Shown here in pieces: positions 2,900 to 51,074 of a stretch of 64,000 nt of DNA (positions are counted from its first letter, which is position 1; every line of letters begins with the position of its first letter). The notes beneath the pieces are model-generated. The model searched no databases, was not told the DNA's origin, and worked only from the letters and a program-made list of their open reading frames with translations. The DNA comes from Candidatus Nomurabacteria bacterium RIFCSPHIGHO2_02_40_30 (lineage in GTDB: Bacteria > Patescibacteriota > Minisyncoccia > Phycocordibacterales > UBA9973), in NCBI GenBank assembly GCA_001785445.1, contig MFTV01000016.1, forward strand, positions 95,653-159,652, written 5' to 3'. Position numbers and translations under genes: made by a program.

Positions 2900-3171
2900 A
2901 GTTTTTTCTTTGTTTCTAATTTATAAACCCCGGAAGTAGGCAAACAAAAAGCCTGCAGCTAGGTTTAGTAGTCTTTCGACTACAAGTGTCCATTTCTGGC
3001 CACTGCTCGCTAAAGCAAATCCTAACTACAGGTTTTTTATGCTTTAGCGAGACTTATTCACCATGCTTTTATTTCTAAAAGTTTAGGTTACTTTCATATT
3101 AAGTTATTTATCAATAATACAACCTTTATCTAAAGGTAGCAAACCTTATAATTTCTAGCATCGCTGGGGAT

Positions 3172-31567: not shown

Positions 31568-32410
31568 TTAAGCGTTTTGGTAGGGTAATTTATTAAACAA
31601 ACTAAACTCTTGAGAAATTTTCTGTTTCTTAAATCTTATAAAATCAAGCTTATATTTATTTCTAATTTTGCCATCATGTAAAAGTCTGTCATTTATCATC
31701 TTGTAATATTCTGGATGAATTTCGCAGCTGATAAAATTGCGTTTAAGTTTTTTACAAAGTGTTAATTCACTCCCACTACCACCAAATAGTACAAAGACAT
31801 CATCGTTTACTTTAGTGCAGGACTTTATCAGCATTTCAACAAGAGATAGGGGTATTTGGCAAGCATGAAATGTCTTGTCTTTAGAAACATTTTTTACAAG
31901 ATCAAAATAAAACCAGCTGTATGGCATCCTGCCTAAATGCCCAGCTGCAATACGCCCCTTAATTCTTTTATCTTGAGGATTTTGGTATGGTAAAGCCACT
32001 TGTTCTTTATAAAAATTATTATTTTTTGATTTTGTTGCATGTAAAATAGAACGATGCGCAGTTGTAAAACGTCTTGGTGTGTGTCCAACATTAGTATTAT
32101 ACGTCCAAACATAATCTTGAACATTAAAAGCATTGTCATCTAGATACTTTACTCGCAGATGAGCATTTTGCTTGGGGTAATTCATCATAAAAAGATTGCC
32201 GGTTGGTTTCAACACCCTTATGCATTCTTGGGTCAGTTTTATATACCAATCAATGTAATCATCCCACTTTGCTTTGTAATTTTTGCCCGCGTAATTAATC
32301 CCGACATTGTAATCCGGATCGCCATATATCATATCAACCGAATTGTCCGGCATTTTAGCCAATATTTTCATTACATCATCATTGAATACTTTGTTTTTGA
32401 ATTTTTCCAT
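31568..32410 (-). CDS. beta-class DNA methyltransferase (N6-adenine or N4-cytosine), type II R-M
   Basis: Motif IV 'GDPDYN' near the N-terminus and motif I 'VLFGGSGS' near the C-terminus (beta permutation). Confidence 0.8.
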   Translation of the reverse strand: MEKFKNKVFNDDVMKILAKMPDNSVDMIYGDPDYNVGINYAGKNYKAKWDDYIDWYIKLTQECIRVLKPTGNLFMMNYPKQNAHLRVKYLDDNAFNVQDYVWTYNTNVGHTPRRFTTAHRSILHATKSKNNNFYKEQVALPYQNPQDKRIKGRIAAGHLGRMPYSWFYFDLVKNVSKDKTFHACQIPLSLVEMLIKSCTKVNDDVFVLFGGSGSELTLCKKLKRNFISCEIHPEYYKMINDRLLHDGKIRNKYKLDFIRFKKQKISQEFSLFNKLPYQNA

Positions 32411-32417
32411 AATTTTT

Positions 32418-33251
32418 CTAATTACTCTGAGTAATTAACTTATATTCGGCAGATTTTATAAAAACAATCGATGTTATGTCTAGTGGTTTCTTAAATGTAT
32501 ATGCCCACAATTTCAGTAAATCGCCACCTTTGGATTTTTCTCTCAGAACATAAACGCAAAATATATTCTTAATTTTTCCTTTTAATTCAGTCTTTCGGTT
32601 GGCATTGAAATAATATAAAAACGGATGATATAGTTGATAAATAGAAAAATTCTCAGGTCTACCATTCTTGCCTTCAAATATACCAATAATGCCCTGAAAT
32701 TCAATCGTAAGATCAATTTCAATCTGTATTGAATCAAGTTGGAGTTTTATTCCCTTTCCAACAAAATATTCGAGACTAGTTTTGGTTCTATGTGGAAAAT
32801 AAGTTTTCGGACGTTTTTCAATATCTATATCTTCAAATTCTCTATCTTGGTTAAAAATAAAATGATGTAAAATTCTTTGATTGTTTGCCACTGAAAGTAT
32901 ATTACTTTCACTCGAATTATATTGATTGAGCAAGCTTTTCTTATATTTCCAATCTATCTTTTTTTGAATTGGCTCAAATTTATGAAAAACCTTATCTATG
33001 CCTTTGATAAATTGATGTTTCCCTTGTCCTTTGTGAAGGATGGCGTAATTATTTTTTATCAAAATTTCAGGAAATTTTTTTATATTATCAAGTTTAGTAA
33101 CATCAAATGGATTACCAAACCCAACCTTTTTACAAATATTTTTAACTAAATCATTGTGAAAAATATAGTTATTTTTTCTTCTGCAAACTCGAAAAAGTTC
33201 TGTTATTACTTGGTTTTTCTTACCTATTTTCATATTCTTATTATATATCAT
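32418..33251 (-). CDS. putative type II restriction endonuclease (cognate to adjacent methyltransferase)
   Basis: Unrecognisable 277 aa protein, 7 bp upstream of the MTase on the same strand. Assigned by context only. Confidence 0.4.
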   Translation of the reverse strand: MIYNKNMKIGKKNQVITELFRVCRRKNNYIFHNDLVKNICKKVGFGNPFDVTKLDNIKKFPEILIKNNYAILHKGQGKHQFIKGIDKVFHKFEPIQKKIDWKYKKSLLNQYNSSESNILSVANNQRILHHFIFNQDREFEDIDIEKRPKTYFPHRTKTSLEYFVGKGIKLQLDSIQIEIDLTIEFQGIIGIFEGKNGRPENFSIYQLYHPFLYYFNANRKTELKGKIKNIFCVYVLREKSKGGDLLKLWAYTFKKPLDITSIVFIKSAEYKLITQSN

Positions 33252-33272: not shown

Positions 33273-33839
33273 TTAGTATTTCCTAATCACCGCCTTGAGT
33301 ACTGCATTTATATTTAAAGAATGCACAGGGTAGATTGCTTTATAATTTTTATTGGCTGGTTCCAGCCAAGTTTTGTTTCCAACCCTACGAAAGTATTTCA
33401 TAGTAAATTCTCCGTCTACCTCGGCGATGACTATTTGCCTGTCTTTGGCGACAGTCGCCCGCTCCACGAGCACCATATCCCCCTTCTCTATATGCGCATC
33501 TATCATAGAGTCGCCATCTACTTCGAGCATGTATGTAGTGGCTTTGTTTTTTACCAGCAAATCATCTAGGTTCACTGTGTCTGCAAGTTCTTCCTCGACT
33601 GTTGCTGGCAAGCCGGCAGTAACTAATCCTGCTACTTGAATTTCTCCGAATCCTTGTGAAGGAATCAGCCTCCCGAGGTGGTCTTTGGCCACAAGTCCTG
33701 CTTCCATTAATTTTTCTACCACCTTAAAAACCGCGTTCTTGGATTTGAAACCAAAGAGCTTCAGCATCTCCGAGTAACTCGGCATCCTTTTGTTCTCGGA
33801 GTAGAAAGACTCTATCTTTATTTGGTAAATATTACGCAT
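33273..33839 (-). CDS. lexA: LexA repressor (probable true start at 33785, 'MPSYSEMLKLFGF')
   Basis: N-terminal wHTH and S24 peptidase domain 'LEVDGDSMIDAHIEKGDMVLV' (Ser) with a downstream Lys in 'TMKYFRR'. A Cheo-type box lies upstream. Confidence 0.85.
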   Translation of the reverse strand: MRNIYQIKIESFYSENKRMPSYSEMLKLFGFKSKNAVFKVVEKLMEAGLVAKDHLGRLIPSQGFGEIQVAGLVTAGLPATVEEELADTVNLDDLLVKNKATTYMLEVDGDSMIDAHIEKGDMVLVERATVAKDRQIVIAEVDGEFTMKYFRRVGNKTWLEPANKNYKAIYPVHSLNINAVLKAVIRKY

Positions 33840-34038: not shown

Positions 34039-34085
34039 ATTTTTATACTAATTAATCTACTAAAACATCGACATAAATAGTATAA

Positions 34086-34101
34086 GTGAACGCTCGTTCA
34101 C
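34086..34101. promoter_or_regulatory. LexA operator (Cheo-box type GAAC-N4-GTTC palindrome)
   Basis: GTGAACgctcGTTCAC lies ~50 bp upstream of the first gene of the lexA operon. A TATACT-like -10 sits between the box and the gene. Confidence 0.6.
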
Positions 34102-34252
34102 TGTCAACAAACCAACTGTGGATAACTAAGATTAGAAAGCCGGCACTTAAGGGTGTGCCGGCGTACCCACAGGGATGAGCCCTGTACAACATATTAGAGA
34201 TCATGCTCCTTTCCGTCCCAGCTCGACTCTTCTCAAAACCACTAGCTCCATT

Positions 34253-34465
34253 TCATATGCTTCGTCTATTGTTGATTTGACGAAGTACTTTTGGCGGTGG
34301 GAGTTGTCGTCGACTCGGACTAGTTGCTTCGTGGTACTGACTGTCTCGGAGCAATTGTTTAAGACGGGCAGTGCTTTCTCTAGACTCGGCATTTTTCCAT
34401 CCTCCAATCGAAATTCCAAGCAGAACCCCAAACAGAATAAGCGTGATTCTAACCTTCCATGACAT
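34253..34465 (-). CDS. small membrane protein (70 aa, one TM, basic C-terminus)
   Basis: Strong RBS AGGAGG 7 nt upstream of the ATG and its own promoter-like motif at 34494..34524. A hairpin terminator (CCGGCAC...GTGCCGG) lies downstream at ~34140..34165. Confidence 0.45.
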   Translation of the reverse strand: MSWKVRITLILFGVLLGISIGGWKNAESRESTARLKQLLRDSQYHEATSPSRRQLPPPKVLRQINNRRSI

Positions 34466-34589
34466 TGGGAACCTCCTTGTTGTGAACTACTAGACTTGAG
34501 TTAAGTATACTACAAATAGAAAAAGGGAGGCGACGAGTCGACTCCCCACTCGTCTTTCCGAGTTGTCAAAGAGTAGAATCACTTCCGTC

Positions 34590-34793
34590 TTAAGCCGCGA
34601 ATCTGTTAGGGGCGATTTCTCTTACTAGTTGGACACTAGTACAAAATTCTCCCTGCCATACAAACTGCAGAGTTTTTCCTGCAGCTTCGGCTTCCCTCCG
34701 CTTATCTTCTATGCATCTCCGGTGGAACTCTGTGTTGCCAATCTGGACGAGATGCGTGCCGTCCAGCTGGATTATACAAATTGGGCAATTCAT
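34590..34793 (-). CDS. small zinc-ribbon protein (67 aa; CPIC...HRRC)
   Basis: GAGG RBS, and a promoter-like motif at 34824..34852 that is near-identical to the one at 34494..34524. A hairpin terminator (GACGAGTggggagtcgACTCGTC) lies downstream. Confidence 0.45.
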   Translation of the reverse strand: MNCPICIIQLDGTHLVQIGNTEFHRRCIEDKRREAEAAGKTLQFVWQGEFCTSVQLVREIAPNRFAA

Positions 34794-34862
34794 ATTGCCT
34801 CGCTTTCTTTTCTTAGATTACATTCAAGTTAAGTGTACCACAAATAAAAATCAATAGATTAT

Positions 34863-35309
34863 TTAGCTAAACTCAGTCTTTAAATACTCGAAAGCTTGGT
34901 TTAGTACCTCTCTTGCTTCTGGGAAAGTTAGCAGTTGTTTTGCTTCATTATAATTAACCCATCTTAATTCAAGAATCTCCTTTTTAAAATTTTCAGGAGT
35001 CGTAGCAGTAATAGATGATACAAAACCAATAAAATACTTTGCGGATTTATTATATTGAATACTGGCTCGCTCAAAAGAATATTTTTCAATAAATGATTTT
35101 TTATCTAAAATAACATTATTAATACCTGTTTCTTCTTGCAGTTCTCTCTTGGCAGTTTCTTCTTCTGATTCACCTGCATCCTGATGCCCCTTCGGGAACC
35201 CCCAGTGCCCTTCAGCCTCGTGGATAAGACAAAAAAGAAAATTATTATTTTCTTTAAAAACTGGAATAACACCAAACGATTGTTCTTTTTTAGTTTCCAT
35301 ATTACGCAT
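34863..35309 (-). CDS. NUDIX hydrolase
   Basis: Nudix box 'GHQDAGESEEETAKRELQEETGI' (GX5EX7REUXEEXGU). Confidence 0.85.
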   Translation of the reverse strand: MRNMETKKEQSFGVIPVFKENNNFLFCLIHEAEGHWGFPKGHQDAGESEEETAKRELQEETGINNVILDKKSFIEKYSFERASIQYNKSAKYFIGFVSSITATTPENFKKEILELRWVNYNEAKQLLTFPEAREVLNQAFEYLKTEFS

Positions 35310-35919
35310 TCACCTTCGGACGGTATTGTATTGCCTCTAGGATATGATTACTTTCAACCTCTGGAGAATTTTCAAGGTCGGCGATAGTGCGGGCAATTTT
35401 TATGACGCGGTGATACGCGCGGGCCGAAAGCCCGAGGTGCTCGGCACTGTCGTCCAGTAAGTCGCGCACTTCTTTCTTCAATTTCACCATGGTCGATAAA
35501 TCTTTCACATTCATCTCACTATTGGTAGCTATGTCTCGGCCCAGTTTCTTAAATCTTTCTTTCTGACGCACACGGGCACCTATAACCCGCGCTTTTATTT
35601 TCTCGCTATGCTCGCCCGTTCCCTCCTCACCTAGTTTTTTATAATCCACATTGCCGACAGACACCCAGATGTCGATACGGTCTATTATTGGTCCGGAGAG
35701 TTTTCTTTTATATCTATCAAGGTCGGAAGGTTTACATATGCAAGCTTTTTTCTTGCTGCCAGCATTGCCGCAAGGACATGGATTCATCGCGGCTACTAGA
35801 ATAAAATTTGACGGGAAAATCGCCGAACCTTTAGCGCGAGAAATCGAAACAATATTGTCTTCAAGCGGTTGCCTCAATGATTCGATAACCCTCTTTTCAA
35901 ATTCCGGAAATTCATCCAG
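35302..35919 (-). pseudogene. comM: 3' (C-terminal) fragment of comM/yifB (Mg-chelatase-like ATPase) separated from its 5' half by a 15 kb insertion
   Basis: The translation resumes at 'LDEFPEFEKRVIESLRQPLEDNIVSISRAKGSAIFPSNFILVAAMNPCPCG'. This is the ComM segment that normally follows Walker B 'GVLFLDE'. There is no ATG; the ORF track begins it at TTG. Confidence 0.8.
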
Positions 35920-35978
35920 GATAGTTGTCTCACAAATAGTCATAAGTAAGTTTATAAACAAAGGAAAAACCTTGATTA

Positions 35979-36593
35979 TTAAGACGATTTTACTCTTTTT
36001 ACTTCTATTGTTCCATAGTTGTTTCTATCCCTACCTGAATAATAATCCCCAGTTAAAGAGTCCGTTTCAGCATTGTAAGTAAGTTTTGTTGAACCCTCGT
36101 GTATAGCCATTGTGGACACCGCGTCATACTCTGGTTCATTTCTGAAAAAGTAAAAGAGTGCAGTTTTATTGTCTATTTCACTCCTACCAAAATTCTCATG
36201 TATGCTAACTGATTTTGATTTGTTAAAAATACCATGTATTTTTATTTTTGTTGCAGTCTGTTTAATCACAAGTTGAGCATCTATGTTGGTTGCAAATTTT
36301 TCATAGGAAGATTTTACAATGCCAATCCACTTACCATTCAAGTCATCTGCTATAACAAGTCCAAGCGATTTAAACATTTTTAGTTTCCATAGATACTTAT
36401 CAAAAAGAAAGAAAAGGAATACATATATTGCAGGGACAGAGGGTATTGAGATAAAAATCTGCATAGAAACTGGTAATTGACTTATATACTGACTAAAAAT
36501 AGAAAAAATCAAATAAGCCAAAAGAGTACTAACACTTATTAGGACAACAATGAGGACAGTAAAGATTTTATAGTTGTTTGTATTTATATTCAT
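35979..36593 (-). CDS. 2TM membrane effector-like protein (Cap15 / S-2TM-beta-like)
   Basis: Two N-terminal TM helices (IFTVLIVVLISVSTLLAYLIF; IFISIPSVPAIYVFLFFLF) followed by a ~130 aa beta-rich soluble domain. It lies 7 bp downstream of the nucleotidyltransferase gene. Confidence 0.5.
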   Translation of the reverse strand: MNINTNNYKIFTVLIVVLISVSTLLAYLIFSIFSQYISQLPVSMQIFISIPSVPAIYVFLFFLFDKYLWKLKMFKSLGLVIADDLNGKWIGIVKSSYEKFATNIDAQLVIKQTATKIKIHGIFNKSKSVSIHENFGRSEIDNKTALFYFFRNEPEYDAVSTMAIHEGSTKLTYNAETDSLTGDYYSGRDRNNYGTIEVKRVKSS

Positions 36594-36599
36594 AAAAAG

Positions 36600-37514
36600 T
36601 TAGATAGTATTCCAGTTATCCCATAAGTTTACAAGTGCGTTGATTGTTGTGTTTGCGTCTGTTATGTTCCATTGATGTTTTGAAGTACCAAAAAGTTGAT
36701 GTTGATTACTCTGTGTTACGAAACTGCTTATGTCATGTTCGTTGAGATACTTTAGTATATTAAAAACTGCTGTGTTGTTATCTCCAGTAAACATTTCATT
36801 CGGTACATTATAAACTAAACTTTGTAGAAAATATGAAGGGGCAGTTTCTTCTGACAAAAGACCCTTTTCAACGGCATAAGACCTAGCATTTTTAATAATG
36901 CGTACAACTCTCTTAAATAGATTTGAAGTTGCTTGATGTTTAGCAACTCCATTATTGTAGTGTTGGTCAGGATAATTTATTATTGTCTCTCCTGTTGCCT
37001 TATGATTAAGTAATATCCCTTCTACTTTTGAGTGATTATGTAATCCTAAAAAATATGAATATGTCCGATGTGCAATGACTGGAACAATGTCTGCCTTAAG
37101 ACGACCAGAATTTTTCAATAGTTTTATAGATTTATTACCAGTTTCATCTATAAAAGCATTCCCATAGTAGGCCTTTAGGGCAATAAGTACATCTCTGCGT
37201 AAATGAGCCAAAATGTAATCTGCAGTAAAGTAGGTTTGTTCGTGTAATAAATATTGTTCTCTGGGTAATAATAACTTGTTTGACTGAAAGACATCCAATC
37301 TAACAAGAACATCAACATCACTATCCCCTCTGGTATTTGTATCGTTTGCATATGACCCCTGTAGGTCAATTTTTACCTTGCCTGATGTTATCATTTCACG
37401 GATAGGCGAACTACTACCACTTAGGGCATTCCTAACTGACTGATATGTTGTACTTGAAAGGTCTTTTGACCCCTGTTTTGCCCAAGTATCTAATTGGTTT
37501 GCTGGTATAGACAT
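36600..37514 (-). CDS. CD-NTase/SMODS-like nucleotidyltransferase (pol-beta superfamily)
   Basis: 'DLQGSYANDTNTRGDSDVDVLV' fits GS-x(9-13)-[DE]h[DE]h, and a later 'KADIVPV' supplies a third acidic residue. At 304 aa it is far larger than minimal MNT toxins. Confidence 0.5.
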   Translation of the reverse strand: MSIPANQLDTWAKQGSKDLSSTTYQSVRNALSGSSSPIREMITSGKVKIDLQGSYANDTNTRGDSDVDVLVRLDVFQSNKLLLPREQYLLHEQTYFTADYILAHLRRDVLIALKAYYGNAFIDETGNKSIKLLKNSGRLKADIVPVIAHRTYSYFLGLHNHSKVEGILLNHKATGETIINYPDQHYNNGVAKHQATSNLFKRVVRIIKNARSYAVEKGLLSEETAPSYFLQSLVYNVPNEMFTGDNNTAVFNILKYLNEHDISSFVTQSNQHQLFGTSKHQWNITDANTTINALVNLWDNWNTI

Positions 37515-37674
37515 ATCTATAAGTGGAGTTTACCCCTATGTAATAAATAAATCAAACTTATGTGGATAAAGTTGAAAAAAGTAATGAAACTGTTAACTTA
37601 CTTACTTGATTTTTTAGAAAAAAGGAGTATATTCTCATTTATATAGAAACCGTGTAAAAATTATTTTAATTATT

Positions 37675-38043
37675 ATGAAGCTCAAAAAAGTAAAAATGTC
37701 AGACATACAGGAAGGACCAATAAGACATCTAACTTTGCCTGATGGCTTTATCCAGCGTGTAAAGGAGTTCAAGCAAGCATTAGCCGAGGTTGAAAAAACA
37801 TCACTAGAAAGCACACTTGAAAACTTTCAAAGAGATACAAACCCTGAAAATGAACTAAGGGTATGGGAAAAAATAGCATCAACTTATCAATGGGCTGTAA
37901 TAGACAATGTTGGGCTTATAGAAGCAGAAAAAAAGGATGTCTTTGGTATCTTGCTTGGTTTATCTATGGGTATGAAGGATTTTAGTAATTTCAAGAACTT
38001 GAGTAAAGAAAAAGTTGCTGAAGTTGTTAGTCATTTTTCATAA
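37675..38043 (+). CDS. hypothetical protein (122 aa)
   Basis: Intact ORF on the opposite strand, between the NTase and the recombinase. Confidence 0.4.
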   Translation: MKLKKVKMSDIQEGPIRHLTLPDGFIQRVKEFKQALAEVEKTSLESTLENFQRDTNPENELRVWEKIASTYQWAVIDNVGLIEAEKKDVFGILLGLSMGMKDFSNFKNLSKEKVAEVVSHFS

Positions 38044-38185
38044 AAATACGAAAGCAATTATTTTAGCAAGCGAGTCAGATAAAAATCAGAGTTCAAATGT
38101 ATCTCTTAATCTAATAAAAGGGTGTTGCGTGATTCTGTGTTCACATCTCGTGAATGTTTCTTTATTAGTTGGTGGTCTATACCAT

Positions 38186-39976
38186 CTATAAAACAAATGT
38201 CTTAGGAAAATACATTAGAGGGTTTAATTTGATTATCTGTTGTCTTCTTTCCGTTTCAGAAATCGTCTTTAAGTCTAGTATAAGTGGGAATGACTCTTTT
38301 TGTTCTTGTGAAACTCCGTTAACTAAACTAATGTTTGTTGTCTTCGTATAACTGGGGAACCTGAAAACAACATTAACATAATCCTCTTTTGCATAGAGGG
38401 TAATTCGTTCAATGAATAGAAATACGATTTTTTGCTTTTCTTCATACGAAACATTTTCTAGTCTATTTTTTATTTGTTCGTATACTTTTTTAAGAGACAC
38501 CTCTCTTTCTTCTTTTTCTTTTTTAGTAGTAGACAACTGGTGTAAATGTATCGTTTCATCCTTGAGTTTTTGTTCGTCATTTTTATATTGACTAACATAC
38601 ATTTCATATTGTTTTTTAGAAATCTGTCCATTCACATAAAGTTCATTGGCTCTGTCTCTCTTTTCACTGATTGAAGATGACTCAGTTTCAATTTCTGTTA
38701 ATCGTATTTTAGTTAACTTGGGGTTTTCTGTTTTATAGATGTATTGTTTTAACGGATGAAACATATTTTGTGGATTTTTGAGTATTTCTTTTAAACAATA
38801 CCAGATGGGTTCTAATCTTGCCTCAGAGTATTGAGGACACCACTCACATCTTTTTGTAGTGCCAACAGCGTCATCTTTTCTATAAATACCATGATAGTAT
38901 CTTCCATTACCGTGCTCCCAGTTTTTTCGTGGGGGTTGAAACCCACTAAACATCTTATAATTGCATTTACCACAATAGATAAGTTTTGAATACAAATACT
39001 CTCGTTTCTGATTTCTTTTTGAAAATTCCCTATTTCTCATTAGTTGTTGTTTTGCGAGTTCAAAAGTTTCTGGTGAAATAACCACGGGTGTTTCTATTTG
39101 TACCCAGTCTTCTTTTGGTCTCAATTTATTTTTATCTGTTATACTTGTAAGATTGTTAAAAGGTCTCTTGTATTTTCTATAATAGAAAACTCCAGTATAA
39201 ACTTCGTTAGTTAAAATTCTTCCTATCGTTCGTTTATACCAATAGTTGTTAGTGGTTCGTTTTTTGACTTTAGTAAAATACGGAGTGGGTATTTTCATTT
39301 GGTTCATTCTTCTCTCTAATTCATTTAGAGACAATCTTTCGTCAATGAGCCATTTAAAAAGTTTCTGAACTATTTTTACTTCTTCTGGAACAAGAAGAAG
39401 TTTTTTTGTTTTTTTGTCAACTTTAAAACCAAAAGGAGGCACACCAGTCACCCACTTTCCTGCTTTAGCGGCACATAATTTTCCATTTGATGTCCTTTCT
39501 CTGATAGTTTCTCTTTCCATTTCTGCGACAGCTCCTAAAAGAGTAGTCATAAATTTTCCTGTACTACTTGTAGTATCAAATGCTTCAGTTGTTGAACGGA
39601 AACCAACATTATAATTTCCAAGAAGTTCAATGGCTCCCAGTAATAATGTGGTCTTTCTAAAAAATCTATCTAATCTATAAACAAGAACAACATCAAACTC
39701 CTTGTTTTGTGCGTCAGTAAATAATTGTTTTAGTTGTGGTCTAGAATCAACGGGTAAAGTACCAGAAAAACCTTCTTCAGAATAGATGTGTTTTTCTTCT
39801 AAAGAATAATCTTGAGACTGGACAAAGGCGAGTAGTTTTTCTTTTTGTACTTCAAGTCCGTATCCTGAAATTTGTTCCCCTGTCGATACTCGGAGATACA
39901 AGGCGACTCTTATTTTATTTTTTGTTTCAGTTTCCATTTTCATAATTCTTTTGACGACAGAGTTTAAAGAGTTCAT
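38186..39976 (-). CDS. large serine recombinase (probable start ~39943/39937)
   Basis: Resolvase-type N-terminal catalytic domain 'IRVALYLRVSTGEQ' with catalytic Ser. Large recombinase C-terminal domain with Cys-rich zinc ribbon (CGKCNYKM...C..C). Confidence 0.9.
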   Translation of the reverse strand: MNSLNSVVKRIMKMETETKNKIRVALYLRVSTGEQISGYGLEVQKEKLLAFVQSQDYSLEEKHIYSEEGFSGTLPVDSRPQLKQLFTDAQNKEFDVVLVYRLDRFFRKTTLLLGAIELLGNYNVGFRSTTEAFDTTSSTGKFMTTLLGAVAEMERETIRERTSNGKLCAAKAGKWVTGVPPFGFKVDKKTKKLLLVPEEVKIVQKLFKWLIDERLSLNELERRMNQMKIPTPYFTKVKKRTTNNYWYKRTIGRILTNEVYTGVFYYRKYKRPFNNLTSITDKNKLRPKEDWVQIETPVVISPETFELAKQQLMRNREFSKRNQKREYLYSKLIYCGKCNYKMFSGFQPPRKNWEHGNGRYYHGIYRKDDAVGTTKRCEWCPQYSEARLEPIWYCLKEILKNPQNMFHPLKQYIYKTENPKLTKIRLTEIETESSSISEKRDRANELYVNGQISKKQYEMYVSQYKNDEQKLKDETIHLHQLSTTKKEKEEREVSLKKVYEQIKNRLENVSYEEKQKIVFLFIERITLYAKEDYVNVVFRFPSYTKTTNISLVNGVSQEQKESFPLILDLKTISETERRQQIIKLNPLMYFPKTFVL

Positions 39977-40205
39977 CGTTGGTTAAGACCTCAATTCTTT
40001 CGGTCTTTAGGGTAATAAGTTCATTGGTCAACTCCTCCCTAGAAAGGGTCTGTATTCTTTGAATCTCATCTGAGATTAAACAATCTTTAAGTTCTGTGGT
40101 GTCATTCATATTTTTTGAAAACAATACTGTGTGTGTCTTACAATAAGTTTCCTTATGCATATTGTTATAGGTGTGTATATAAAAGTACAACAAATATGTT
40201 AACAA
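39927..40205 (-). CDS. small hypothetical protein upstream of recombinase (possible recombination directionality/regulatory protein)
   Basis: ORF overlapping the recombinase start in another frame. The real start is likely internal (MNDTTELK...). No motif. Confidence 0.3.
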   Translation of the reverse strand: MLTYLLYFYIHTYNNMHKETYCKTHTVLFSKNMNDTTELKDCLISDEIQRIQTLSREELTNELITLKTERIEVLTNDELFKLCRQKNYENGN

Positions 40206-40313
40206 CTGATGAGACCATTAGAACGATTGGTTGTTTTTGACCTACTGATGTGTGCAAAATTTTAGTTCTATATATAGATTGCATAGTTGCAACGATGAGT
40301 ATTAAGTAAGTAT

Positions 40314-42170
40314 TTATTCAAAAAGGTGTTCCATCTCTTCATCCTCTTCGTCTATTTTTACGATTTCTTCATCGATTTCAATAGTAGATTTTGTAATGGA
40401 CTCTTTTGGTGTTGTTAATTTTTCGTCCTCTCTGGGGAGTCTGTAAATGTTTCTCTTTCCTGACTTGTCGACCACTATCTTTTTCTCTTTTGTTAGTTCT
40501 TTAAGTGCATCTACAACATTCCTCCCACCTGCTTGTGCTTTTACTGCTTCTTGTAATGCTTCCTTTATGTGTGGACCATCCTCCAGTACGATTAAGATAG
40601 CCATTTTTGCATTTTCTTTTTTGCTTTTTTCCTCTTCAATTTCTTGATAATCCCCTAAAGATACTTTTCCGTCTACTTCAATCAACTTCACACTAAAGGG
40701 GTCAGCTGCTTTACTTCGTCTTGACTTCACATGCTCAATTTCCATAATAAACGCTTTTGTATTTTTTTTATCTTTTTTAACTGTTATGTGTGAATCTAAT
40801 CTTCCTGAAATAGCAGACGAACCACGAAGACTTTGTGCTCCTTTTGGTTGTCCGATTCCATCTTTTCTGTGGTGATGGATAAATAAAACAGAAGCACCTA
40901 CTTTATTTATTTCTTGCATAGCTTGCATAATCTGTTCTGCTTGTTCAGCACTATTTTCTTCTTTTGAATGTAGTGCTGCGAATGGGTCAAACATAACCAA
41001 AGAAATATTGTTTTGTTGAACTATGTTTTTAAGTTGGTCTAAGTCTTTTCTATTATCAATTTTGAAGTGTTGAAGAATACTAAACATAATTGGTAAATCT
41101 TTTTTGAATGACATTCTTTCTATTCGTCTTTTTGTCTCACCCTCACCTGACTCTTCATCAACAAGAAGTATTTTTCCAGTCATAGTTTCAAAATGGTCAA
41201 ATACTTTTTTACCTGATGCTATTGCTTTAGCAATATGCAACATTACCCAACTTTTTCCATGACTTGGTTGTCCTGAAAGAGCAATAATGCCTTGCCTTGG
41301 GATAAGTGGATTGACTAAAAATTCCTGTTCTTTGGTCTCTAGTTTTAAAACATCACTAACAGAAAGTATTTTTATCAATCGTTGTTCCGTGTTTTCGGGT
41401 TCTTTCCCATCTTTTCTTTGTTTTCTTTGAGATTCTGCAAGACTCTCGAAAACTTCAAATAAGTGTTTGTCTTCTAATGGTGGATTGTTGTTTTTGTTCC
41501 ATGACTGGACTAACGGGAAACAAAAAGTAAACCAATCCTTTTCTGAATATTGGTATAACAATTTTCCAGAAATTCGAGTTAAAACATCATGACGAGAACC
41601 TGTCTCAACTCCACTAAATAGAACATCCCATTTTTGGTCTGACTGGTTGTGATTTTGAGTTGTCTTTTTTTCGTCAAGAACCATCCACTTTGGAACTTCA
41701 GCAAGGGGTAGTTTGTCTAAATCAATTTCCCATTCGTAATGATTCCCAGATAGATGAAGAGATGGGGGGACAACTATGTATCCCCCATCACCTCTAATAT
41801 CTATTTTACGACCCAAAATACGAGTGGCATTTTTTATACCAGTCTCAGGATATTTGAAGTAGAAATGTTTCCCTCCCCCTCCAGATTTCACAGTCGGGGT
41901 GTTTGGTATCTCTAATCCAGTTGTATCTCCGTCATGTTCAACATCTAAAACAACTATCCCAGAAATTTTTCCTGTCACTAATGCAATACCATCTGGGATA
42001 TTGTTCTTAAACCATGATTCTATTTCTTCTTTACTGGCTTGTCTTTCTTGATACTCTTTCCAAGACGACAAGAGTGGTGTTTTGTCTCTTTTGATGGGGA
42101 TAACAGAGAGCCCCTTTTCTTGAAGTCGGAGAGCGGCCTGAAGTAGAACACTTCTTTTTTTTGTTTGCAT
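40314..42170 (-). CDS. bifunctional primase-polymerase (Prim-Pol) N-terminal domain fused to RecA-like/DnaB-like helicase (AAA_25-type) replication protein
   Basis: N-terminal 'GLSVIPIK...GIALVTGKISGIVVLDVEHDGD...GGGGKHFYFKY...DIRGDGGYIVVPPS' is a prim-pol signature. Central P-loop 'LSGQPSHGKSW' and 'ILLVDEESGEG' are also present. Confidence 0.75.
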   Translation of the reverse strand: MQTKKRSVLLQAALRLQEKGLSVIPIKRDKTPLLSSWKEYQERQASKEEIESWFKNNIPDGIALVTGKISGIVVLDVEHDGDTTGLEIPNTPTVKSGGGGKHFYFKYPETGIKNATRILGRKIDIRGDGGYIVVPPSLHLSGNHYEWEIDLDKLPLAEVPKWMVLDEKKTTQNHNQSDQKWDVLFSGVETGSRHDVLTRISGKLLYQYSEKDWFTFCFPLVQSWNKNNNPPLEDKHLFEVFESLAESQRKQRKDGKEPENTEQRLIKILSVSDVLKLETKEQEFLVNPLIPRQGIIALSGQPSHGKSWVMLHIAKAIASGKKVFDHFETMTGKILLVDEESGEGETKRRIERMSFKKDLPIMFSILQHFKIDNRKDLDQLKNIVQQNNISLVMFDPFAALHSKEENSAEQAEQIMQAMQEINKVGASVLFIHHHRKDGIGQPKGAQSLRGSSAISGRLDSHITVKKDKKNTKAFIMEIEHVKSRRSKAADPFSVKLIEVDGKVSLGDYQEIEEEKSKKENAKMAILIVLEDGPHIKEALQEAVKAQAGGRNVVDALKELTKEKKIVVDKSGKRNIYRLPREDEKLTTPKESITKSTIEIDEEIVKIDEEDEEMEHLFE

Positions 42171-42209
42171 AACATATTTTTTTACTAAAGATAAACTCTA
42201 ATACTAAAA

Positions 42210-42566
42210 CTACTTTTTAGTTTGAGTATTATTAAACCAATAATAAGTTTTGTGGGTAAATTTAGCCTCTAAGGGATTAAACTTACCTGAACAAGTAAAC
42301 CGAGTAATAAAATCAGTCATTTGAATAAACATTGTTATCTTCTTTTTTGGTATGTCGTAACGACATCTAAGAACAATTTCTTCTTTGTCTTTCAAGCCAC
42401 TAACATGTCCAGTGTTTATCGACTCTGCACTTATTTTTCTTTCCACAATAGATTCTAATTCTTCACAAATATTTTCCATGCTGTCTTGAACCGCCACTCT
42501 ATATTTGTCTCCAGGTTGTCTAGTATTCTTCAGACTTATATCTCTTACTTTATTTATTTTTTTCAT
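42210..42566 (-). CDS. hypothetical protein (118 aa)
   Basis: Intact ORF with no motif. Confidence 0.4.
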   Translation of the reverse strand: MKKINKVRDISLKNTRQPGDKYRVAVQDSMENICEELESIVERKISAESINTGHVSGLKDKEEIVLRCRYDIPKKKITMFIQMTDFITRFTCSGKFNPLEAKFTHKTYYWFNNTQTKK

Positions 42567-43308
42567 CTTCTAATTCGTTATCACTTATAATTTCGCTGGA
42601 TTTTATTTCATCTGACGATAAAATAAGCTGAAAGAAAGCATTAAATACTGCAGATATTTCTTGCTCAATTTTTTTATCATTTTTAGACATAGAAAAGGCC
42701 AGCTACAAGATTGTGCCTAATACATTGAATTTTTGAGTATGACCACTACTACAAAAAATAAATGCCAAGCAAATCTTTTTTTGCAGTTTTTTTTGGTAGA
42801 GTGAGAATGTCACCGCTGGTTCGACCTGAAGCGACAACACAATTTAGATTAAACTGACTACATATTAAGTATGGCATGCAGAAATACCAAAAGTGTCAAA
42901 ATAAGATATAAAAAAAGAGAAAAGTAAACAAGAAATAAAAAACTCTTATTTTTAAAGACTCTTTTGGATTTATATAACAGTATGTTGATTACTTGTCAAT
43001 TTTTTTGACACTTTTTTAGCCCTTTTGAGCAAAAAAGGCTACACAAAAATGACCCAGTTTTAGTAAAAAATTGTATGGATATAGAATACCACCTCTTTCA
43101 CGGGGGAAGGCCTCTAAAAGGACTCTAGAATGGCCAGACACCCAATTAGGGTGTTGGTTGTCCTAGTTTATACATGTGCATGCTAATCCAAAACACAGTT
43201 CTATAAACTTTACTATATAAACTCGTAAATCATTATGAATCTCGTAGAAGCTATAATGGGTTGCTACTCGTAGCGTCGTACACAATTTTTCCATTAAAAA
43301 TCATTCAG

Positions 43309-44295
43309 TCAAGGAATTAAATAGACCGAGTACTCTAATTGCCTTCTTGCATCTACATCTCCTGGTTGAACACAATTAAAATCATCCTGATTATCAATTC
43401 CAATCGTGACGATATGAACCCCTGTTGAACTATTACTCACATCGAGAGTGAAAGTATTCTCAAGTGAAAAGACCTTCCAACCAGACTCACTAGACCAGTC
43501 GGCTGGTGTATCATGTGTAAAGTAGACAGGAAGTCCTTGTGGGTCAGTAGCTGTTATCTCTAATGTGATAGAGTTAACTGTCCCCTTAGCGAAACCGCCT
43601 CTAATGCCAAAACCTTGAAACGGATAATTGCCAACATTGCCAAGACTATCTTTAATCATAGTAATCTTTGGACAATGAAGTTCTTTGTAAGTTAATGGGG
43701 GCGTAGGTGTTGGAGTTGGAGTCTGTCTTTTTCTAGTTATAATTGCAGGAGGAGTAATTGGAGTTATGCTTGGTATAACAAGAATTGTGTCGTTGCATGA
43801 CTTACCAGTTATTGAACTAAACTTATTGCCTGAATCACACCCTGCATTTACTGGAAGTACCTGACTTGAAGTTGAATTATCAATAATAACAGGCGGTGCA
43901 GTACATGGTCCCACTATTGGGCATGGTCCCACCATAACTCCAGGACTTGCTCCACCACCTGCGCTACTGGAGGGGGTAGTCAATGTTGTTGGTTTTGTTG
44001 GAGTGATTTGTTTTGATGTAGACTTAGTGTCCTGTTTTTCTTTTTTGAGTACAACTTTTTCTTTTTCAACTTTTTTATCATTAACGGAGTTAGTAGTTGG
44101 AACAGAAACTTGAACTACTGGAGGTTGAACAACTTGTTTTTTAAACCATGAAAACGGATTCCACCAAGAAGCAAAAGCAATAGAGGGAGTTAAAAATACT
44201 ATTAAAAGTAGACACAAGGAATATCTTTTCATAAAATTATTTAAGACAAAAATTGCTAATAATTCCATGAATGGGAAACAAAAAGCCCACCACAT
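43309..44295 (-). CDS. secreted protein with 'ASWWNPFSWF' post-signal motif (paralogue of 994..2535); likely start at ~44232 (MKRYSL...)
   Basis: 'MKRYSLCLLLIVFLTPSIAFASWWNPFSWFKK' is a signal peptide plus the same motif. It is followed by a P/T/S-rich linker and a C-terminal globular domain. Confidence 0.6.
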   Translation of the reverse strand: MWWAFCFPFMELLAIFVLNNFMKRYSLCLLLIVFLTPSIAFASWWNPFSWFKKQVVQPPVVQVSVPTTNSVNDKKVEKEKVVLKKEKQDTKSTSKQITPTKPTTLTTPSSSAGGGASPGVMVGPCPIVGPCTAPPVIIDNSTSSQVLPVNAGCDSGNKFSSITGKSCNDTILVIPSITPITPPAIITRKRQTPTPTPTPPLTYKELHCPKITMIKDSLGNVGNYPFQGFGIRGGFAKGTVNSITLEITATDPQGLPVYFTHDTPADWSSESGWKVFSLENTFTLDVSNSSTGVHIVTIGIDNQDDFNCVQPGDVDARRQLEYSVYLIP

Positions 44296-44490
44296 GGGTA
44301 GAGACCGAAGTCTCTCATATTAGTTTCCTAATATGGCCTGACGGACACCCCATATGATGGGTTCTTTATGTCCGTCAGGACTCTTTCACCATGCTATTGA
44401 AAAATCAATAGTTTAGGCTACTTTTAAAATATTCAGTTGTATCTATATAGTATTACTTGTCTAAAGAAATGTAAAATAAAGAGGTCATAA

Positions 44491-45309
44491 CTACATGATA
44501 AGAGTTGATAATTCCTTTGCATTATTGAGTGGTAATGATAGATATAATGCCTTTTCTGATTTGCCTGCTTGTACCATCTTTTTTAATGTAAAGTTTTGCG
44601 AGAAGAAGTTTTTATCAATATATCCAACTATGTATGCTTTTCGAGTTGATATATCAATATAAATTCTTACATAAAAAAAACGCATATTGATTTGCTCTTC
44701 ATTGCGCATTTTTAATATACACTCAGAATTAGATAAACAATTAAAACTCCTGTATGTTTTACAAAAATTTATATAGTCCATCAAATTGTTTATTTTATCA
44801 AATTCATCTACACGGAGATATTTAGGGTACTCAAGAAAATCATCACTCATGATAATACTAGAGATGTTCTGGTCACTGCTTCCTGTTCTTTTGTGCCGCT
44901 CTGCAACTCTTGTAGATTTTATTTCAACCGTATAAATACCATTACTTTCAAGACCAATTTTTGTCCCATCACTTATCTTCCCATAGTCACTATTTTTAAC
45001 CTCATAATTGATTTGTTCTATATATTTATTAACTATTGATTGGTCTTTATTTGATACGAATATTATTCCATCAAAAGGAGCATGCTTTTCAAAATTATTA
45101 GACCTAAACTCATCATACGATAAGTATTTATAATTCGGAAAATTCTGAATTATAAATTCCTTAAACACTTTTTCAGCAATTTTACCTAGTGATGTATCTG
45201 AAGCTTTTTCTTCGTTAGAACGACCTAGTTGCCATGTATTTGCTGTGTTTTCAACAATCTTTTTGAAACTACCAGAATTGTTAATTGTTATATCATTAAT
45301 TATTATCAT
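44491..45309 (-). CDS. hypothetical protein co-transcribed with type III res; possible PD-(D/E)xK fold
   Basis: Overlaps the res stop by 4 nt. 'PFDGIIF...YEVKNS / VEIKST' weakly resembles a PD-ExK nuclease core. Confidence 0.4.
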   Translation of the reverse strand: MIIINDITINNSGSFKKIVENTANTWQLGRSNEEKASDTSLGKIAEKVFKEFIIQNFPNYKYLSYDEFRSNNFEKHAPFDGIIFVSNKDQSIVNKYIEQINYEVKNSDYGKISDGTKIGLESNGIYTVEIKSTRVAERHKRTGSSDQNISSIIMSDDFLEYPKYLRVDEFDKINNLMDYINFCKTYRSFNCLSNSECILKMRNEEQINMRFFYVRIYIDISTRKAYIVGYIDKNFFSQNFTLKKMVQAGKSEKALYLSLPLNNAKELSTLIM

Positions 45310-47849
45310 TGCTTTTTCAATTCTTCAAATAATCTTACCTGCTCACGCTGGAGTGAAGCATTGAAAATGATATGATATTCAAAGTTTTTATTTATACTCT
45401 TAAAATCAGAGAAGCCGATTTCTTTTGCTAGTATTTCGTTTGTGAGATTTTCCATTTTGCCTTTGTATGATTTTTTATTTGCTTCATAGTCAGCTTGTTC
45501 GTCTCCTCCTTTCGTTTCAATCACTAAAAAACGTTCCTTTGATGTTTCAATGAGAAAATCTGGAAAGTATCGCCCCATACGCTTTTGCTCTGGACTCCAA
45601 TATTCAAAGTAAAAATCGGTTCGGCTCGGGTCTGCACAAACACGAGCTCCTGTAAAATATATATCTTTGATAGTTTCTTTTTTTTCAAGCACACTTCTCA
45701 AGTATCGAAATAAATCCTTTTCATCACTACTATCAAAAGCATACGGATTGATGTGAAAACCGATACGACCCTTTCGTCCTTCTTCTGCTTCAGTTTCTTT
45801 GTATACTACTAGAGTATTTCTACCCTGTTGAACACTAATTTTAAACGGAAAGAGTTTTGTAAGTTCAAGTTCTTCTTCTACAATCTCAGTCTTTTCTTCA
45901 TACTTGTAAGCACTTTTTAGGATTTCTTGTACTATAAATGGAACGAGGGCGAAATTCTCATTTGTCATTTTTACAAACTCATCCCGTTTCTTGCTACTAG
46001 AAATAATACTACTAATCACAATACACGATAGGTGTGTATAGCGATTGATAATTTCTACTATCTCGTAGAAAGTAAAATCGTTTTTGTCTTCTATTTTTCG
46101 GACTGCTCTAACTTCACTGTATCCAGCATTTCCCTCATCACCAAGAAAGATACCCCCCTCACTGACAAATGACTGGTATCGCTCTGGCTTGAACTTCTTA
46201 AAATCTACTTTTATGTTCTCTGCGTTCGCCTCCTGTACTGCTAAAATCTCTTTAAGCACCTTCTTAACTTTGATGGTCTTTCGTTTCTCAACTTCTAGTG
46301 TATGTTCTACCATTTTCTGGTCTTGTGTATTCAACTCGCTTATGCTGGAAGCAAAGTTATTCTTAAGTTCTTTATCAAGTATTTTGTAATTTTCCTTTGA
46401 AAGAAAGATGTGAGCACGAGTAGAATTGTCACCAATAGCACGGAGACATCTTGTTGTGGATTGAAGCACAAGGATAGTGCTTTTTGGCTTTTTATACAGA
46501 GCAACTGAAACAAGCGAACGACAATTCCATCCTTCAGTTCCTTTACCTACGAGCAGTACAAATCGCTTTTTGCTTTCTGCTGTATCAAGCTGTCTAAAAT
46601 CATTAATGTTTTCTTCTGCTCGTGTGTGATATTCCAGAATAGTGCTTGGCGAGATATTTCTCTCTGTGAGAATACGCTCCAGTTTTGGCTTCAAGTCAGT
46701 TTGTAAATCATTAATGTTTGATGCGTAAAAAGCAATCTTCGGCAATCGTCCTTCAAGTCTCTTCTTGTCATACTCAGCAATAAAAGTATCAATGACTTCT
46801 TCAAGAAATTTTTGTGACCGCACTATACCATAATCTAAGATGCGAACCTGTTTCAAAATTCCTTTCTCTATACCTTGCTTAAGACCGAAGTGATACACTA
46901 CATCAGAAATCATCTTATTGTTTACATAGGGAGTTCCTGTGAGGTTCACTACAGATATAAGTGGTGTGTGCTTGTGTAAATAATCAATCGTTTGACGTGT
47001 TTTCTTCAAAGTTCCTTCAAGAGTTTTGCCATATGAATGATGGGCTTCGTCCACAAAAATTTGAAGTGAACCAAGTTGTCGTATGGCTTGCAATCGCATA
47101 TTCTCAACCTCTCGTTTCCCGAGCTCATTCTTATCGCCAAAAAGACGCTTTGTGGCATTGTTTTCGTCCCCATTTCTTGTCTTCAAAATTATCTTCTGTG
47201 AGTTGGAAACAATGACATTATAGTTCCCATTTGGAGCTAGAGGAGTGTCAGTACTTTCAAGGTAATGGTATTTTATATTCAAAATGATATTCTCGTATTC
47301 TTTCGGAAGCACTCGTGAGTAGTCAAAAGTCTTGATTTCTTTCAAGCTCTCAATGATGGTTGTATCAGGAGCAAAGACTAGAGCATTTTTCGCAAAACGT
47401 TCGTCATCATTGTGATAGAACGAAAGCACAAAATCATAGAGCATCATCACGGCCATCAAAATTGTTTTACCCGAACCCATTGTGAGAGCATAGACCTGAT
47501 TTGCATAATCCGAAGTCCCGAACTTATCATCAAGAATTAGCTGTATTTTTTCATCTTTTTTCTTATCGTAGGCAAGCTCAAACGCTTCTTTGTCAGAAAT
47601 ACCCAGAGCACGGATGAGTTCAATTTCATTTTCAAATGATTGTCGGAACACTTCCACTGACGGCTTGTTGCCTACTACTTCTTTGAGGTAGATATAAGTT
47701 TCCAATGCTTCAATCTGTGGCTCGTGCAAAAAAGCTACTCGCTTGATGTGAGTGAGAATGTTCTCCGTCTCTTTGTACACGCTTTTATATCCATCAGCAC
47801 GCCAGAGAGCTACTTGTTTTTGTATGTTTTGAAGAAAAAAACTATCCAT
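45306..47849 (-). CDS. res: type III restriction enzyme Res subunit (SF2 helicase + C-terminal PD-(D/E)xK endonuclease)
   Basis: Walker A 'LTMGSGKTIL', DEAH 'IFVDEAHHS', motif VI-like 'VGKGTEGWNCRS' and C-terminal 'FPDFLIE...LVIETKG'. Confidence 0.8.
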   Translation of the reverse strand: MDSFFLQNIQKQVALWRADGYKSVYKETENILTHIKRVAFLHEPQIEALETYIYLKEVVGNKPSVEVFRQSFENEIELIRALGISDKEAFELAYDKKKDEKIQLILDDKFGTSDYANQVYALTMGSGKTILMAVMMLYDFVLSFYHNDDERFAKNALVFAPDTTIIESLKEIKTFDYSRVLPKEYENIILNIKYHYLESTDTPLAPNGNYNVIVSNSQKIILKTRNGDENNATKRLFGDKNELGKREVENMRLQAIRQLGSLQIFVDEAHHSYGKTLEGTLKKTRQTIDYLHKHTPLISVVNLTGTPYVNNKMISDVVYHFGLKQGIEKGILKQVRILDYGIVRSQKFLEEVIDTFIAEYDKKRLEGRLPKIAFYASNINDLQTDLKPKLERILTERNISPSTILEYHTRAEENINDFRQLDTAESKKRFVLLVGKGTEGWNCRSLVSVALYKKPKSTILVLQSTTRCLRAIGDNSTRAHIFLSKENYKILDKELKNNFASSISELNTQDQKMVEHTLEVEKRKTIKVKKVLKEILAVQEANAENIKVDFKKFKPERYQSFVSEGGIFLGDEGNAGYSEVRAVRKIEDKNDFTFYEIVEIINRYTHLSCIVISSIISSSKKRDEFVKMTNENFALVPFIVQEILKSAYKYEEKTEIVEEELELTKLFPFKISVQQGRNTLVVYKETEAEEGRKGRIGFHINPYAFDSSDEKDLFRYLRSVLEKKETIKDIYFTGARVCADPSRTDFYFEYWSPEQKRMGRYFPDFLIETSKERFLVIETKGGDEQADYEANKKSYKGKMENLTNEILAKEIGFSDFKSINKNFEYHIIFNASLQREQVRLFEELKKQ

Positions 47850-47854
47850 AATTT

Positions 47855-49846: not shown

Positions 49847-49936
49847 TGTAAGAAATTGATAATGGCTTCCGTTATTCCTAGTATTCAGTATATTATAGTT
49901 TCAAGTATTTATACATATTTCCATATTAAGCTTCTA

Positions 49937-49976
49937 CGCTTTTTCTGCGAAAAGTATCTGCTACACTATATCACAC
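49937..49976. promoter_or_regulatory. ~40 bp conserved upstream motif (copy 1) shared by two element operons
   Basis: cgctttttctgcgaaaagtatctgctacactatatcacac lies upstream of mod. A similar motif at 51006..51045 lies upstream of the HEXXH/CPBP genes. Confidence 0.4.
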
Positions 49977-50028
49977 TATTTTAGTCAGTTTTTTTATTAG
50001 TTTTTAACCTTTTAAGAACTAATACAAA

Positions 50029-50475
50029 TCAAGCTTTTACTATAATGTTGTAGAGTAAATGCAAGTAGACTGGAATTAGTAAAGCAAATGAATACCAAAT
50101 ACTCTTAAAAGATAAGTATTTCGGGTTGGTTGCTAAGTAAAAGAAGTAAGCCATTACAAGTCCAAGTATGACATGAACCCAAAAAGGAACTATACTAGCT
50201 TTTCCATAAGCCATTAAATGGTAAATTCCTTCCATGAAACCAAAACCAATACTTACGAATGGAATTGTAGAGGGTGTTAAATAAGCAATTCTTATTAAGA
50301 GTAATGCTGTTCCGAACTTTAATCCCTCTTCTAGCCATGGACCATAGGATATTGAGCTATAGGATGAAAGAAAACTAGGAAATAAATGAAAAAATAAAAT
50401 AATGAGACAAAGCAAACTTCCTCCAGCAAAAAAAGATGCTATTGCTTGAAGAAATAATAACTGCTTTTGAGACAT
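50029..50475 (-). CDS. CPBP-family (CAAX protease/Abi-like) intramembrane protein
   Basis: Multi-TM. Motifs 'PWLEEGLKFG' (EE), 'FMEGIYH' (FxxxH) and 'HLLYN' (HxxxN). Confidence 0.55.
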   Translation of the reverse strand: MSQKQLLFLQAIASFFAGGSLLCLIILFFHLFPSFLSSYSSISYGPWLEEGLKFGTALLLIRIAYLTPSTIPFVSIGFGFMEGIYHLMAYGKASIVPFWVHVILGLVMAYFFYLATNPKYLSFKSIWYSFALLIPVYLHLLYNIIVKA

Positions 50476-50493
50476 TTTACAAAATTTTTATTG

Positions 50494-50958: not shown

Positions 50959-51005
50959 AAGAATATTATAATAATTATACTTCAGGTATGTTCTTTGGTT
51001 TCTGG

Positions 51006-51045
51006 CCTTTTCACACGAAAAGTATCGGCCTACCTATATGACACA
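51006..51045. promoter_or_regulatory. ~40 bp conserved upstream motif (copy 2) near right end of element
   Basis: ccttttcacacgaaaagtatcggcctacctatatgacac is similar to 49937..49976. It overlaps hairpin GGCCTAcctatatgacacaaacaTAGGCC followed by a T-run. Confidence 0.4.
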
Positions 51046-51074
51046 AACATAGGCCTGTTTTTTTTATTACTTTT

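Follow-up and report, generated by a model that had tools for sequence, protein, structure and literature searches.

A predicted type I CBASS operon, cdnE-cap15, at the edge of a serine-recombinase island in comM of a Candidatus Nomurabacteria bacterium

The stretch analyzed here (64,000 nucleotides of contig MFTV01000016.1, positions 95,653 to 159,652, assembly GCA_001785445.1, Candidatus Nomurabacteria bacterium RIFCSPHIGHO2_02_40_30; hereafter the window) carries two adjacent genes on the minus strand, which, as judged from profile searches and structure models, very probably form a type I anti-phage operon of the antiphage signaling system that is based on cyclic oligonucleotides (CBASS) located at the edge of a serine-recombinase island in comM. 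The upstream gene, cdnE (36600..37514), encodes a nucleotidyltransferase of 304 aa, and the downstream gene, cap15 (35979..36593), encodes a protein of 204 aa with two transmembrane (TM) helices and a C-terminal beta-barrel receptor (residues ~84-200). A first-pass annotation made from the letters alone had already placed both open reading frames (ORFs) at these positions and had read them as a minimal CBASS-like module on a mobile element, composed of a pol-beta cGAS/DncV-like cyclase and a Cap15-type membrane-disrupting effector. This reading stood in all its parts. The identity and fold of the two proteins, the catalytic residues, the gene order, the pairing, the absence of accessory genes and the exact insertion site were obtained directly from the comparisons described below.

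The cyclase was assigned from the ORF list, profile searches, its fold and an alignment of homologs. The PADLOC model for CBASS oligonucleotide cyclases (PDLC00788) matched residues 1-301 of 304 with E = 7.9e-100, and nine more PADLOC cyclase models matched at E < 1e-5. Sequence search against the PDB returned only nucleotidyltransferases of the cGAS/DncV-like kind (CD-NTases) of clade E, led by RmCdnE (6E0K, E = 1e-48) and LpCdnE (7X4F, E = 1e-39) and followed by EmCdnE, EfCdnE and ClCdnE. The AlphaFold model, for which 71 homologs were given as input, had a mean predicted local distance difference test score (pLDDT) of 92.2 and a predicted TM-score (pTM) of 0.84; in Foldseek it matched RmCdnE (6E0K/6E0L) with TM-scores of 0.84-0.88, the top 12 structures were all CdnE (12/12), and CdnD, CdnC, cGAS and DncV came next at TM-scores of ~0.5-0.6. 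The helical C-terminal domain PF26305 (CD_NTase_C) is precomputed on a protein identical to the cyclase, and the SMODS family PF18144 on many of its close homologs. The active-site strings quoted in the first-pass annotation were present as QGSYANDTNTRGDSDVDVLV at residues 52-71 and KADIV at residues 140-144, and G53, S54, D66, D68 and D142 were invariant in 71/71 aligned homologs; read from this alignment, DVDV and KADIV provide the catalytic triad. By sequence and modeled fold, the 304-aa protein is a clade-E CD-NTase.

Regarding the effector, Pfam, PADLOC, PDB comparison and the structure model agreed on Cap15. Its Kyte-Doolittle hydropathy profile showed two hydrophobic segments at residues ~11-33 and ~46-66 (maxima 2.6 and 2.3) ahead of a polar C-terminal domain. 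The Pfam family PF18153 (Cap15_CD_rec) scored 91 bits against a cutoff of 31.2 (E = 9.1e-26), and the PADLOC model for 2TM CBASS effectors (PDLC00705) matched the full length of the protein with E = 3.7e-62. The sole PDB sequence match was the receptor domain of Yersinia aleksiciae Cap15 (YaCap15, 7N34, E = 8e-7). The AlphaFold model, built from 64 sequences (pLDDT 89.4, pTM 0.80), consisted of helices 8-32 and 52-66 followed by eight beta-strands forming a barrel, as the first-pass annotation had expected of its two TM helices and beta-rich C-terminal domain. In the Foldseek search against the PDB, only three YaCap15 chains gave significant matches (target TM-score, TMt, 0.80-0.86; root-mean-square deviation 2.3-3.0 A), with lipocalin-like barrels far lower in the ranking. 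YaCap15 (7N34/7N35) shares with the present protein the arrangement of a pair of TM helices with a receptor that forms a beta-barrel, whereas identity across the barrel is only 22-23%. By sequence and modeled fold, the 204-aa protein is Cap15. Four basic residues (K66, K70, K72 and K75) stand behind TM2, from which we infer by the positive-inside rule that the barrel would lie on the cytoplasmic side, where the signal could reach it.

The two genes are on the same strand with cap15 downstream, and only 6 bp separate the stop codon of the cyclase from the start codon of the effector, a trivial difference from the 7 bp given previously. Conservation of this pairing was assessed by a scan of one genome per species, in which 80 loci with relatives of the cyclase (36-68% identity) were collected. 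Two of them lay at a contig edge; among the 78 with room downstream, a Cap15 homolog, as detected by a hidden Markov model of the effector, followed directly on the same strand in 73, and five had a different neighbor. The paired loci were distributed over Kaiser-, Pacei-, Nomura-, Morani-, Roizman- and Saccharibacteria of the candidate phyla radiation (CPR), many other bacterial phyla and several archaea. Searches of the neighborhood with Pfam, PADLOC, PHROGs and NCBIfam found neither Cap2/Cap3 (E1/E2/JAB) nor HORMA/TRIP13 nor any other ancillary CBASS gene. Since type I CBASS is defined as a cyclase and an effector without ancillary genes (PMC10419184), the locus was assigned to type I; type II and type III were rejected because neither Cap2/Cap3 nor HORMA/TRIP13 genes are nearby. 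Taken by sequence, structure and synteny, the earlier label 'CBASS-like' can be upgraded, and these comparisons support cdnE-cap15 as a bona fide type I CBASS operon.

On one side the pair is flanked by the island end, 59 bp past cap15, and on the other side by orf122 and then the serine recombinase. The gene orf122 (37675..38043, plus strand, 122 aa) is oriented divergently to cdnE and separates the CBASS genes from the integrase; it matched nothing in Pfam, PADLOC, PHROGs or NCBIfam, and is not a recognized CBASS accessory gene. Every contig with the identical island (L001-L003) has it conserved, and a role as recombination directionality factor or as regulator is conceivable. The 160 bp between cdnE and orf122 (37515..37674, minus strand) are by their position the likely promoter region of the operon. 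One weak sigma-70-like match was seen there, 5' of cdnE (37658->37631, TTTACA-16-GAGAAT). No structured RNA or riboswitch was detected near the operon at Rfam gathering thresholds (35.3-38.3 kb).

Among characterized systems, the layout is closest to that of Ssc-CBASS of Staphylococcus schleiferi (type I-B, Banh et al. 2023, PMC10686824), in which a clade-E CD-NTase is likewise followed by a 2TM Cap15 with no accessory genes and restriction-modification (RM) genes are also close by. This two-gene operon of CdnE03 and Cap15 defends against phages by membrane disruption triggered by cyclic GMP-AMP (cGAMP) (PMC10686824). The likeness may not extend to the signal, because Ssc-CdnE03 makes cGAMP and is activated by the phage RNA called cabRNA, whereas lid 1 of the present enzyme is Asn and a uracil-containing product is predicted. 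This prediction follows published rules that relate lid residues to nucleotide choice in CdnE enzymes (PMC10442399). The reference enzyme was RmCdnE, a c-UMP-AMP synthase that is the best match in both sequence and structure (~35% identity, with the same GS/DxD/D site). Lid 1 of the cyclase is N180, which aligns with N166 of RmCdnE and is Asn in 66/71 homologs; a lid 1 Asn hydrogen-bonds the uracil of the acceptor (PMC10442399). Lid 2 is H185, a His shared with ClCdnE and EfCdnE. Lid 3 is H280-x-W282, with T267 and H280 aligned to C252 and E265 of RmCdnE; the donor pocket is unclosed in both enzymes, although RmCdnE has Glu in place of the lid 3 His. LpCdnE, ClCdnE and EfCdnE resemble the present enzyme in belonging to clade E, being encoded with Cap15 in type I operons and carrying a lid 1 Asn, but these three synthesize cyclic di-UMP, and in such di-pyrimidine enzymes Glu and (R/Q)xW shut the donor pocket to purines (PMC10442399). 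Because the cyclase has T267 and H280-x-W282 at these positions and its family shares the C/E-x-W consensus there with RmCdnE, we do not expect synthesis to be restricted to di-pyrimidines. We rather predict an acceptor pocket specific for uracil (N180) and a donor pocket open to purines (T267 and H280 instead of the purine-closing Glu and Arg/Gln), and would guess the product to be c-UMP-AMP or a different cyclic dinucleotide that contains uracil. Such a product would fit the effector, since Cap15 senses uracil-containing cyclic dinucleotides and oligomerizes (PMC10419184).

By analogy with characterized homologs, from which the trigger, product, ligand binding, membrane disruption and phage defense are all taken, the operon would work as follows. 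CdnE would be made but stay idle until it meets a phage-derived cue, possibly a virion-assembly protein or, as in the case of Ssc-CdnE03, a structured RNA of the phage. The activated enzyme would then join two nucleoside triphosphates into a cyclic dinucleotide at its pol-beta site (G53-S54, D66, D68 and D142), and this signal would bind the cytoplasmic beta-barrel of the TM-anchored Cap15. YaCap15 and Ssc-Cap15 bind cyclic dinucleotides, oligomerize and disrupt membranes (PMC10686824, PMC10419184); likewise, higher-order oligomers of the present Cap15 would disrupt the cytoplasmic membrane, and the infected cell would die before release of phage progeny (abortive infection).

Several points weigh against this assignment. 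The case for an anti-phage role is computational throughout, and to our knowledge no CBASS locus of CPR bacteria has been tied to a phage, a trigger, a product or a phenotype. Some profile scores fell short of their thresholds: Pfam SMODS (PF18144) gave 23.5 bits on the cyclase against a gathering score of 26.5 (E = 7.2e-5, profile positions 21-138 of 164), and Pfam PF23471 (Cap15_TM) gave 26.8 bits on the effector against 28.2 (E = 8e-6). For both families, other models score very strongly. The NCBIfam equivalogs CBASS_cyclase_a and CBASS_cyclase_b also scored far under their cutoffs on the cyclase, whose best NCBIfam match was NF053871, 'DS2_2 anti-phage nucleotidyltransferase' (full length, 273 bits against a cutoff of 350, E = 2.8e-81); by this score the cyclase is a relative of the NF053871 equivalog and not a member. 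A system named 'Liu-DS2' is CBASS-DAC (PMC13069673), and its connection to the name 'DS2_2' is unconfirmed. His at lid 3 is rare, occurring in 2/71 homologs, and the product prediction is weak because H280 is so unusual in the family; this residue could even stand for a product so far unseen among CdnE enzymes. Lastly, the promoter and terminator scan at cdnE-cap15 found nothing above chance (10 promoter-like matches versus 11.1 in shuffled sequence), and the effector family has a member that works with the opposite logic.

That member is OptE of Panoptes, a Cap15 homolog of the S-2TM-beta family (PMC12657218). If the present pair followed the same inverse 'guard' signaling, a constitutive cyclic dinucleotide would hold the Cap15-like effector off, and a phage sponge or nuclease of the Acb2 or Acb1 type would free it and kill the cell. 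The direction in which the ligand acts is not readable from sequence alone, and the effector here does belong to the same S-2TM-beta family as that of Panoptes OptS/OptE (PMC12657218). However, the synthase of Panoptes is an mCpol with inhibitory signaling, and Panoptes-type effectors are paired not with a CD-NTase but with mCpol or, in newer reports, a minimal DAC synthase; the partner of Cap15 here is a full-length clade-E CD-NTase, and profile searches gave no mCpol match among the neighbors of the pair. The best matches of the effector are CBASS 2TM effector models, and the characterized CdnE and Cap15 operon of S. schleiferi works by activation (PMC10686824). Inverse signaling, the one rival to be taken seriously, is accordingly regarded as very unlikely.

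We give an equally small chance to the pair being an inactive or decaying passenger of the island. For such a passenger, it can be said that no expression signal stands out at the operon. The streamlining of CPR genomes and the cost that abortive infection may have for an episymbiont also count in its favor. On the other hand, both ORFs are full length, with the catalytic and the nearly invariant family residues all intact, and the identical cyclase was found on 94 contigs and in 178 index blocks from many samples, each time with the same gene pair and neighborhood. A non-signaling nucleotidyltransferase (aminoglycoside nucleotidyltransferase, MNT antitoxin or CCA-adding enzyme) beside an unrelated small membrane protein is the least probable of the alternatives and can be regarded as refuted: the only Pfam family above its gathering score on the cyclase is indeed the generic NTP_transf_2, at residues 46-89 only, but the full-length matches in sequence and fold are to CD-NTases only, the CD_NTase_C helical domain is present, profile, PDB sequence and Foldseek searches returned no match of the aminoglycoside-nucleotidyltransferase or MNT type, and the neighbor is Cap15 by profile and fold with the pairing conserved at 73/78 loci.

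The mobile element that had been suggested as the carrier of the pair turned out to be an integrative island of 15,243 bp (35920..51162) in comM, a YifB/Mg-chelatase-like gene on the minus strand. The 3' half of comM (35302..35917, Pfam) contains Mg_chelatase profile positions 111-206 and Mg_chelatase_C, and the 5' half (51165..52103, profile search) contains the ChlI domain and Mg_chelatase profile positions 1-116; the ORF of the 5' half reads on into island DNA and stops at 51075 (51075..52103). At the break the halves read ...AHRGVLFL|KGVPL... and ...TTI|LDEFPEF..., and when they were joined over a shared CT, an in-frame ORF of 518 aa with a restored Walker-B sequence GVLFLDEFPEF was obtained. 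Alignment of the junctions placed the CT crossover core (minus strand) at 51163..51164, where the comM 5' half meets the island, and at 35918..35919, where the island meets the 3' half. The best contig with an empty site, L085, comes from a related species (~70-75% nucleotide identity) and encodes an intact ComM 82% identical to the joined ORF; in the alignment of L085 with the window, position 51163 leads over to 35919, the overlap being 2 bp. This jump and the joining of comM together define the island ends and the 2-bp CT core, which is the core size expected for a serine recombinase. The reconstructed attachment sites are attB GGAGTTTTGTTTCTGGATGAATTTCCGGA and attP GAGACAACTATCCTAAAAGGTGTTCCGC; the 29-bp attB occurred exactly in six metagenome contigs, none of the empty-site contigs representing the same strain.

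On the island lies a gene for a large serine recombinase (38186..39976, minus strand; Resolvase 5.9e-35, Recombinase 3.9e-18, Zn_ribbon_recom and the PHROG 95 integrase, 2.6e-105), and a large serine recombinase put the island precisely into comM. The CBASS pair lies 59 bp inside the island edge, between this integrase and the att site. G+C content was 34.3% in the island and ~39% in the flanks. The island is not a recognizable phage or plasmid, because the searches of phages, IMG/VR and plasmids gave no close match: island DNA had no megablast match and the cyclase no tblastn match among sequenced phages, IMG/VR contained neither an exact match to the attP junction of the excised circle nor relatives of the recombinase, and IMG/VR and plasmids held only distant homologs of the cyclase (32-39% identity).

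Other cargo identified by profile searches comprises a PrimPol-AAA_25 primase/helicase (40314..42170), a Res-like helicase (45306..47849, minus strand) and a Type III-like methyltransferase (47855..49846, minus strand; PADLOC MTase_III, 6e-62). By these assignments, the Type III-like RM pair (45306..49846) and CBASS make up a small mobile defense island. The helicase, an 847-aa ResIII-type helicase/restriction subunit, had no PADLOC match and a weak match to the NCBIfam BPTD_3080 family. Several ORFs of the island are without a family; orf122 and four others matched nothing in PHROGs, PADLOC or NCBIfam. At the far end, a small metalloprotease-like ORF (50494..50958, minus strand) gave weak matches to Peptidase_U49/Lit, SprT-like and PHROG 87 metallo-protease families and may encode a Lit-like protease of abortive infection or else a regulator of the ImmA type; it is adjoined by an orphan ORF of 148 aa (50029..50475, minus strand).

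The closest relative of the CBASS pair was found on a complete chromosome of Candidatus Kaiserbacteria (CP066682.1; L004, 4150..7514), where the cyclase is 68% identical. In this genome, too, comM is interrupted at that Walker-B codon (...AHRGVLF|AEVGY*), the insert has 38-48% G+C against 62% for the host, and CBASS is found less than 1 kb away from the break in comM, with a LexA-like S24 gene standing between the break and cdnE. These two cases, the Nomurabacteria window and the Kaiserbacteria chromosome, suggest that CBASS-carrying islands have repeatedly entered the Walker-B site of comM in CPR bacteria. We tentatively raise the further possibility that this codon (GVLF|LDE) serves as a common landing site to one family of integrative islands, which moves CdnE-Cap15 between CPR lineages of very different G+C content, though on balance we doubt it. 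If this were true, ultra-small episymbionts would give up a competence-associated gene and gain abortive-infection immunity in return.

The identical cyclase is filed in the public record as "hypothetical protein A2W67_00930" of Candidatus Nomurabacteria bacterium RIFCSPLOWO2_02_40_28, with relatives named at most "nucleotidyltransferase"; the present analysis corrects this annotation to CBASS CdnE, by the sequence and fold comparisons above. It adds an apparently clean and complete CBASS in an uncultivated, ultra-small groundwater bacterium of the CPR with a tiny genome, on an exactly bounded 15.2-kb island that also carries a Type III-like RM pair. Few type I CBASS layouts are commoner than CdnE-Cap15, whose structure and genetics are known, so that the understanding of CBASS is unchanged; standard defense finders of the PADLOC type would call cdnE-cap15 automatically, and CPR surveys already record CBASS-type accessory defenses and dense defensomes (PMC12259885). 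The modest additions are an insertion site in comM that recurs in two lineages of the CPR and, for a large serine recombinase of CPR bacteria, a defined set of attB, attL and attR.

Outside the island, beyond the comM 3' half, a NUDIX hydrolase gene (34863..35309, minus strand; PADLOC candidate family PDC-S07, 4e-10), which probably belongs to the host, shares 8 bp with the end of comM. It is of note because NUDIX domains occur in some CBASS effectors (Cap16). A second RM-like pair on the minus strand (31568..33251) consists of an N6/N4 methyltransferase (31568..32410) and a DUF6996/DUF6997 protein that matched a PADLOC Type II restriction endonuclease (4e-13), and is followed by a LexA-like S24 peptidase (33273..33839). 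Between the operon of this peptidase and the NUDIX gene, ~800 bp (34040..34860) with a relatively high G+C content of ~42% contain only short overlapping ORFs and had no Rfam match at gathering thresholds; a degraded gene or an RNA that has escaped annotation could lie in this segment.

The window also contains two full-length LOOT RNAs (Rfam RF03000) on the minus strand, one within the island (44300..44419) and one in host DNA (2968..3089), which scored 85.7 and 76.7 bits as the two copies, above the gathering score of 46.4. Both end in a terminator-like GC-rich stem followed by CTTTTTGTTT, and each is upstream of a gene for a secreted protein (328 aa, 43309..44295, and 513 aa, 994..2535, respectively). 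The two proteins share an N-terminal ASWWNPFSWF motif and are 36% identical over 108 aa, and LOOT RNA may be functionally linked to this ASWWNPFSWF protein family in CPR bacteria.

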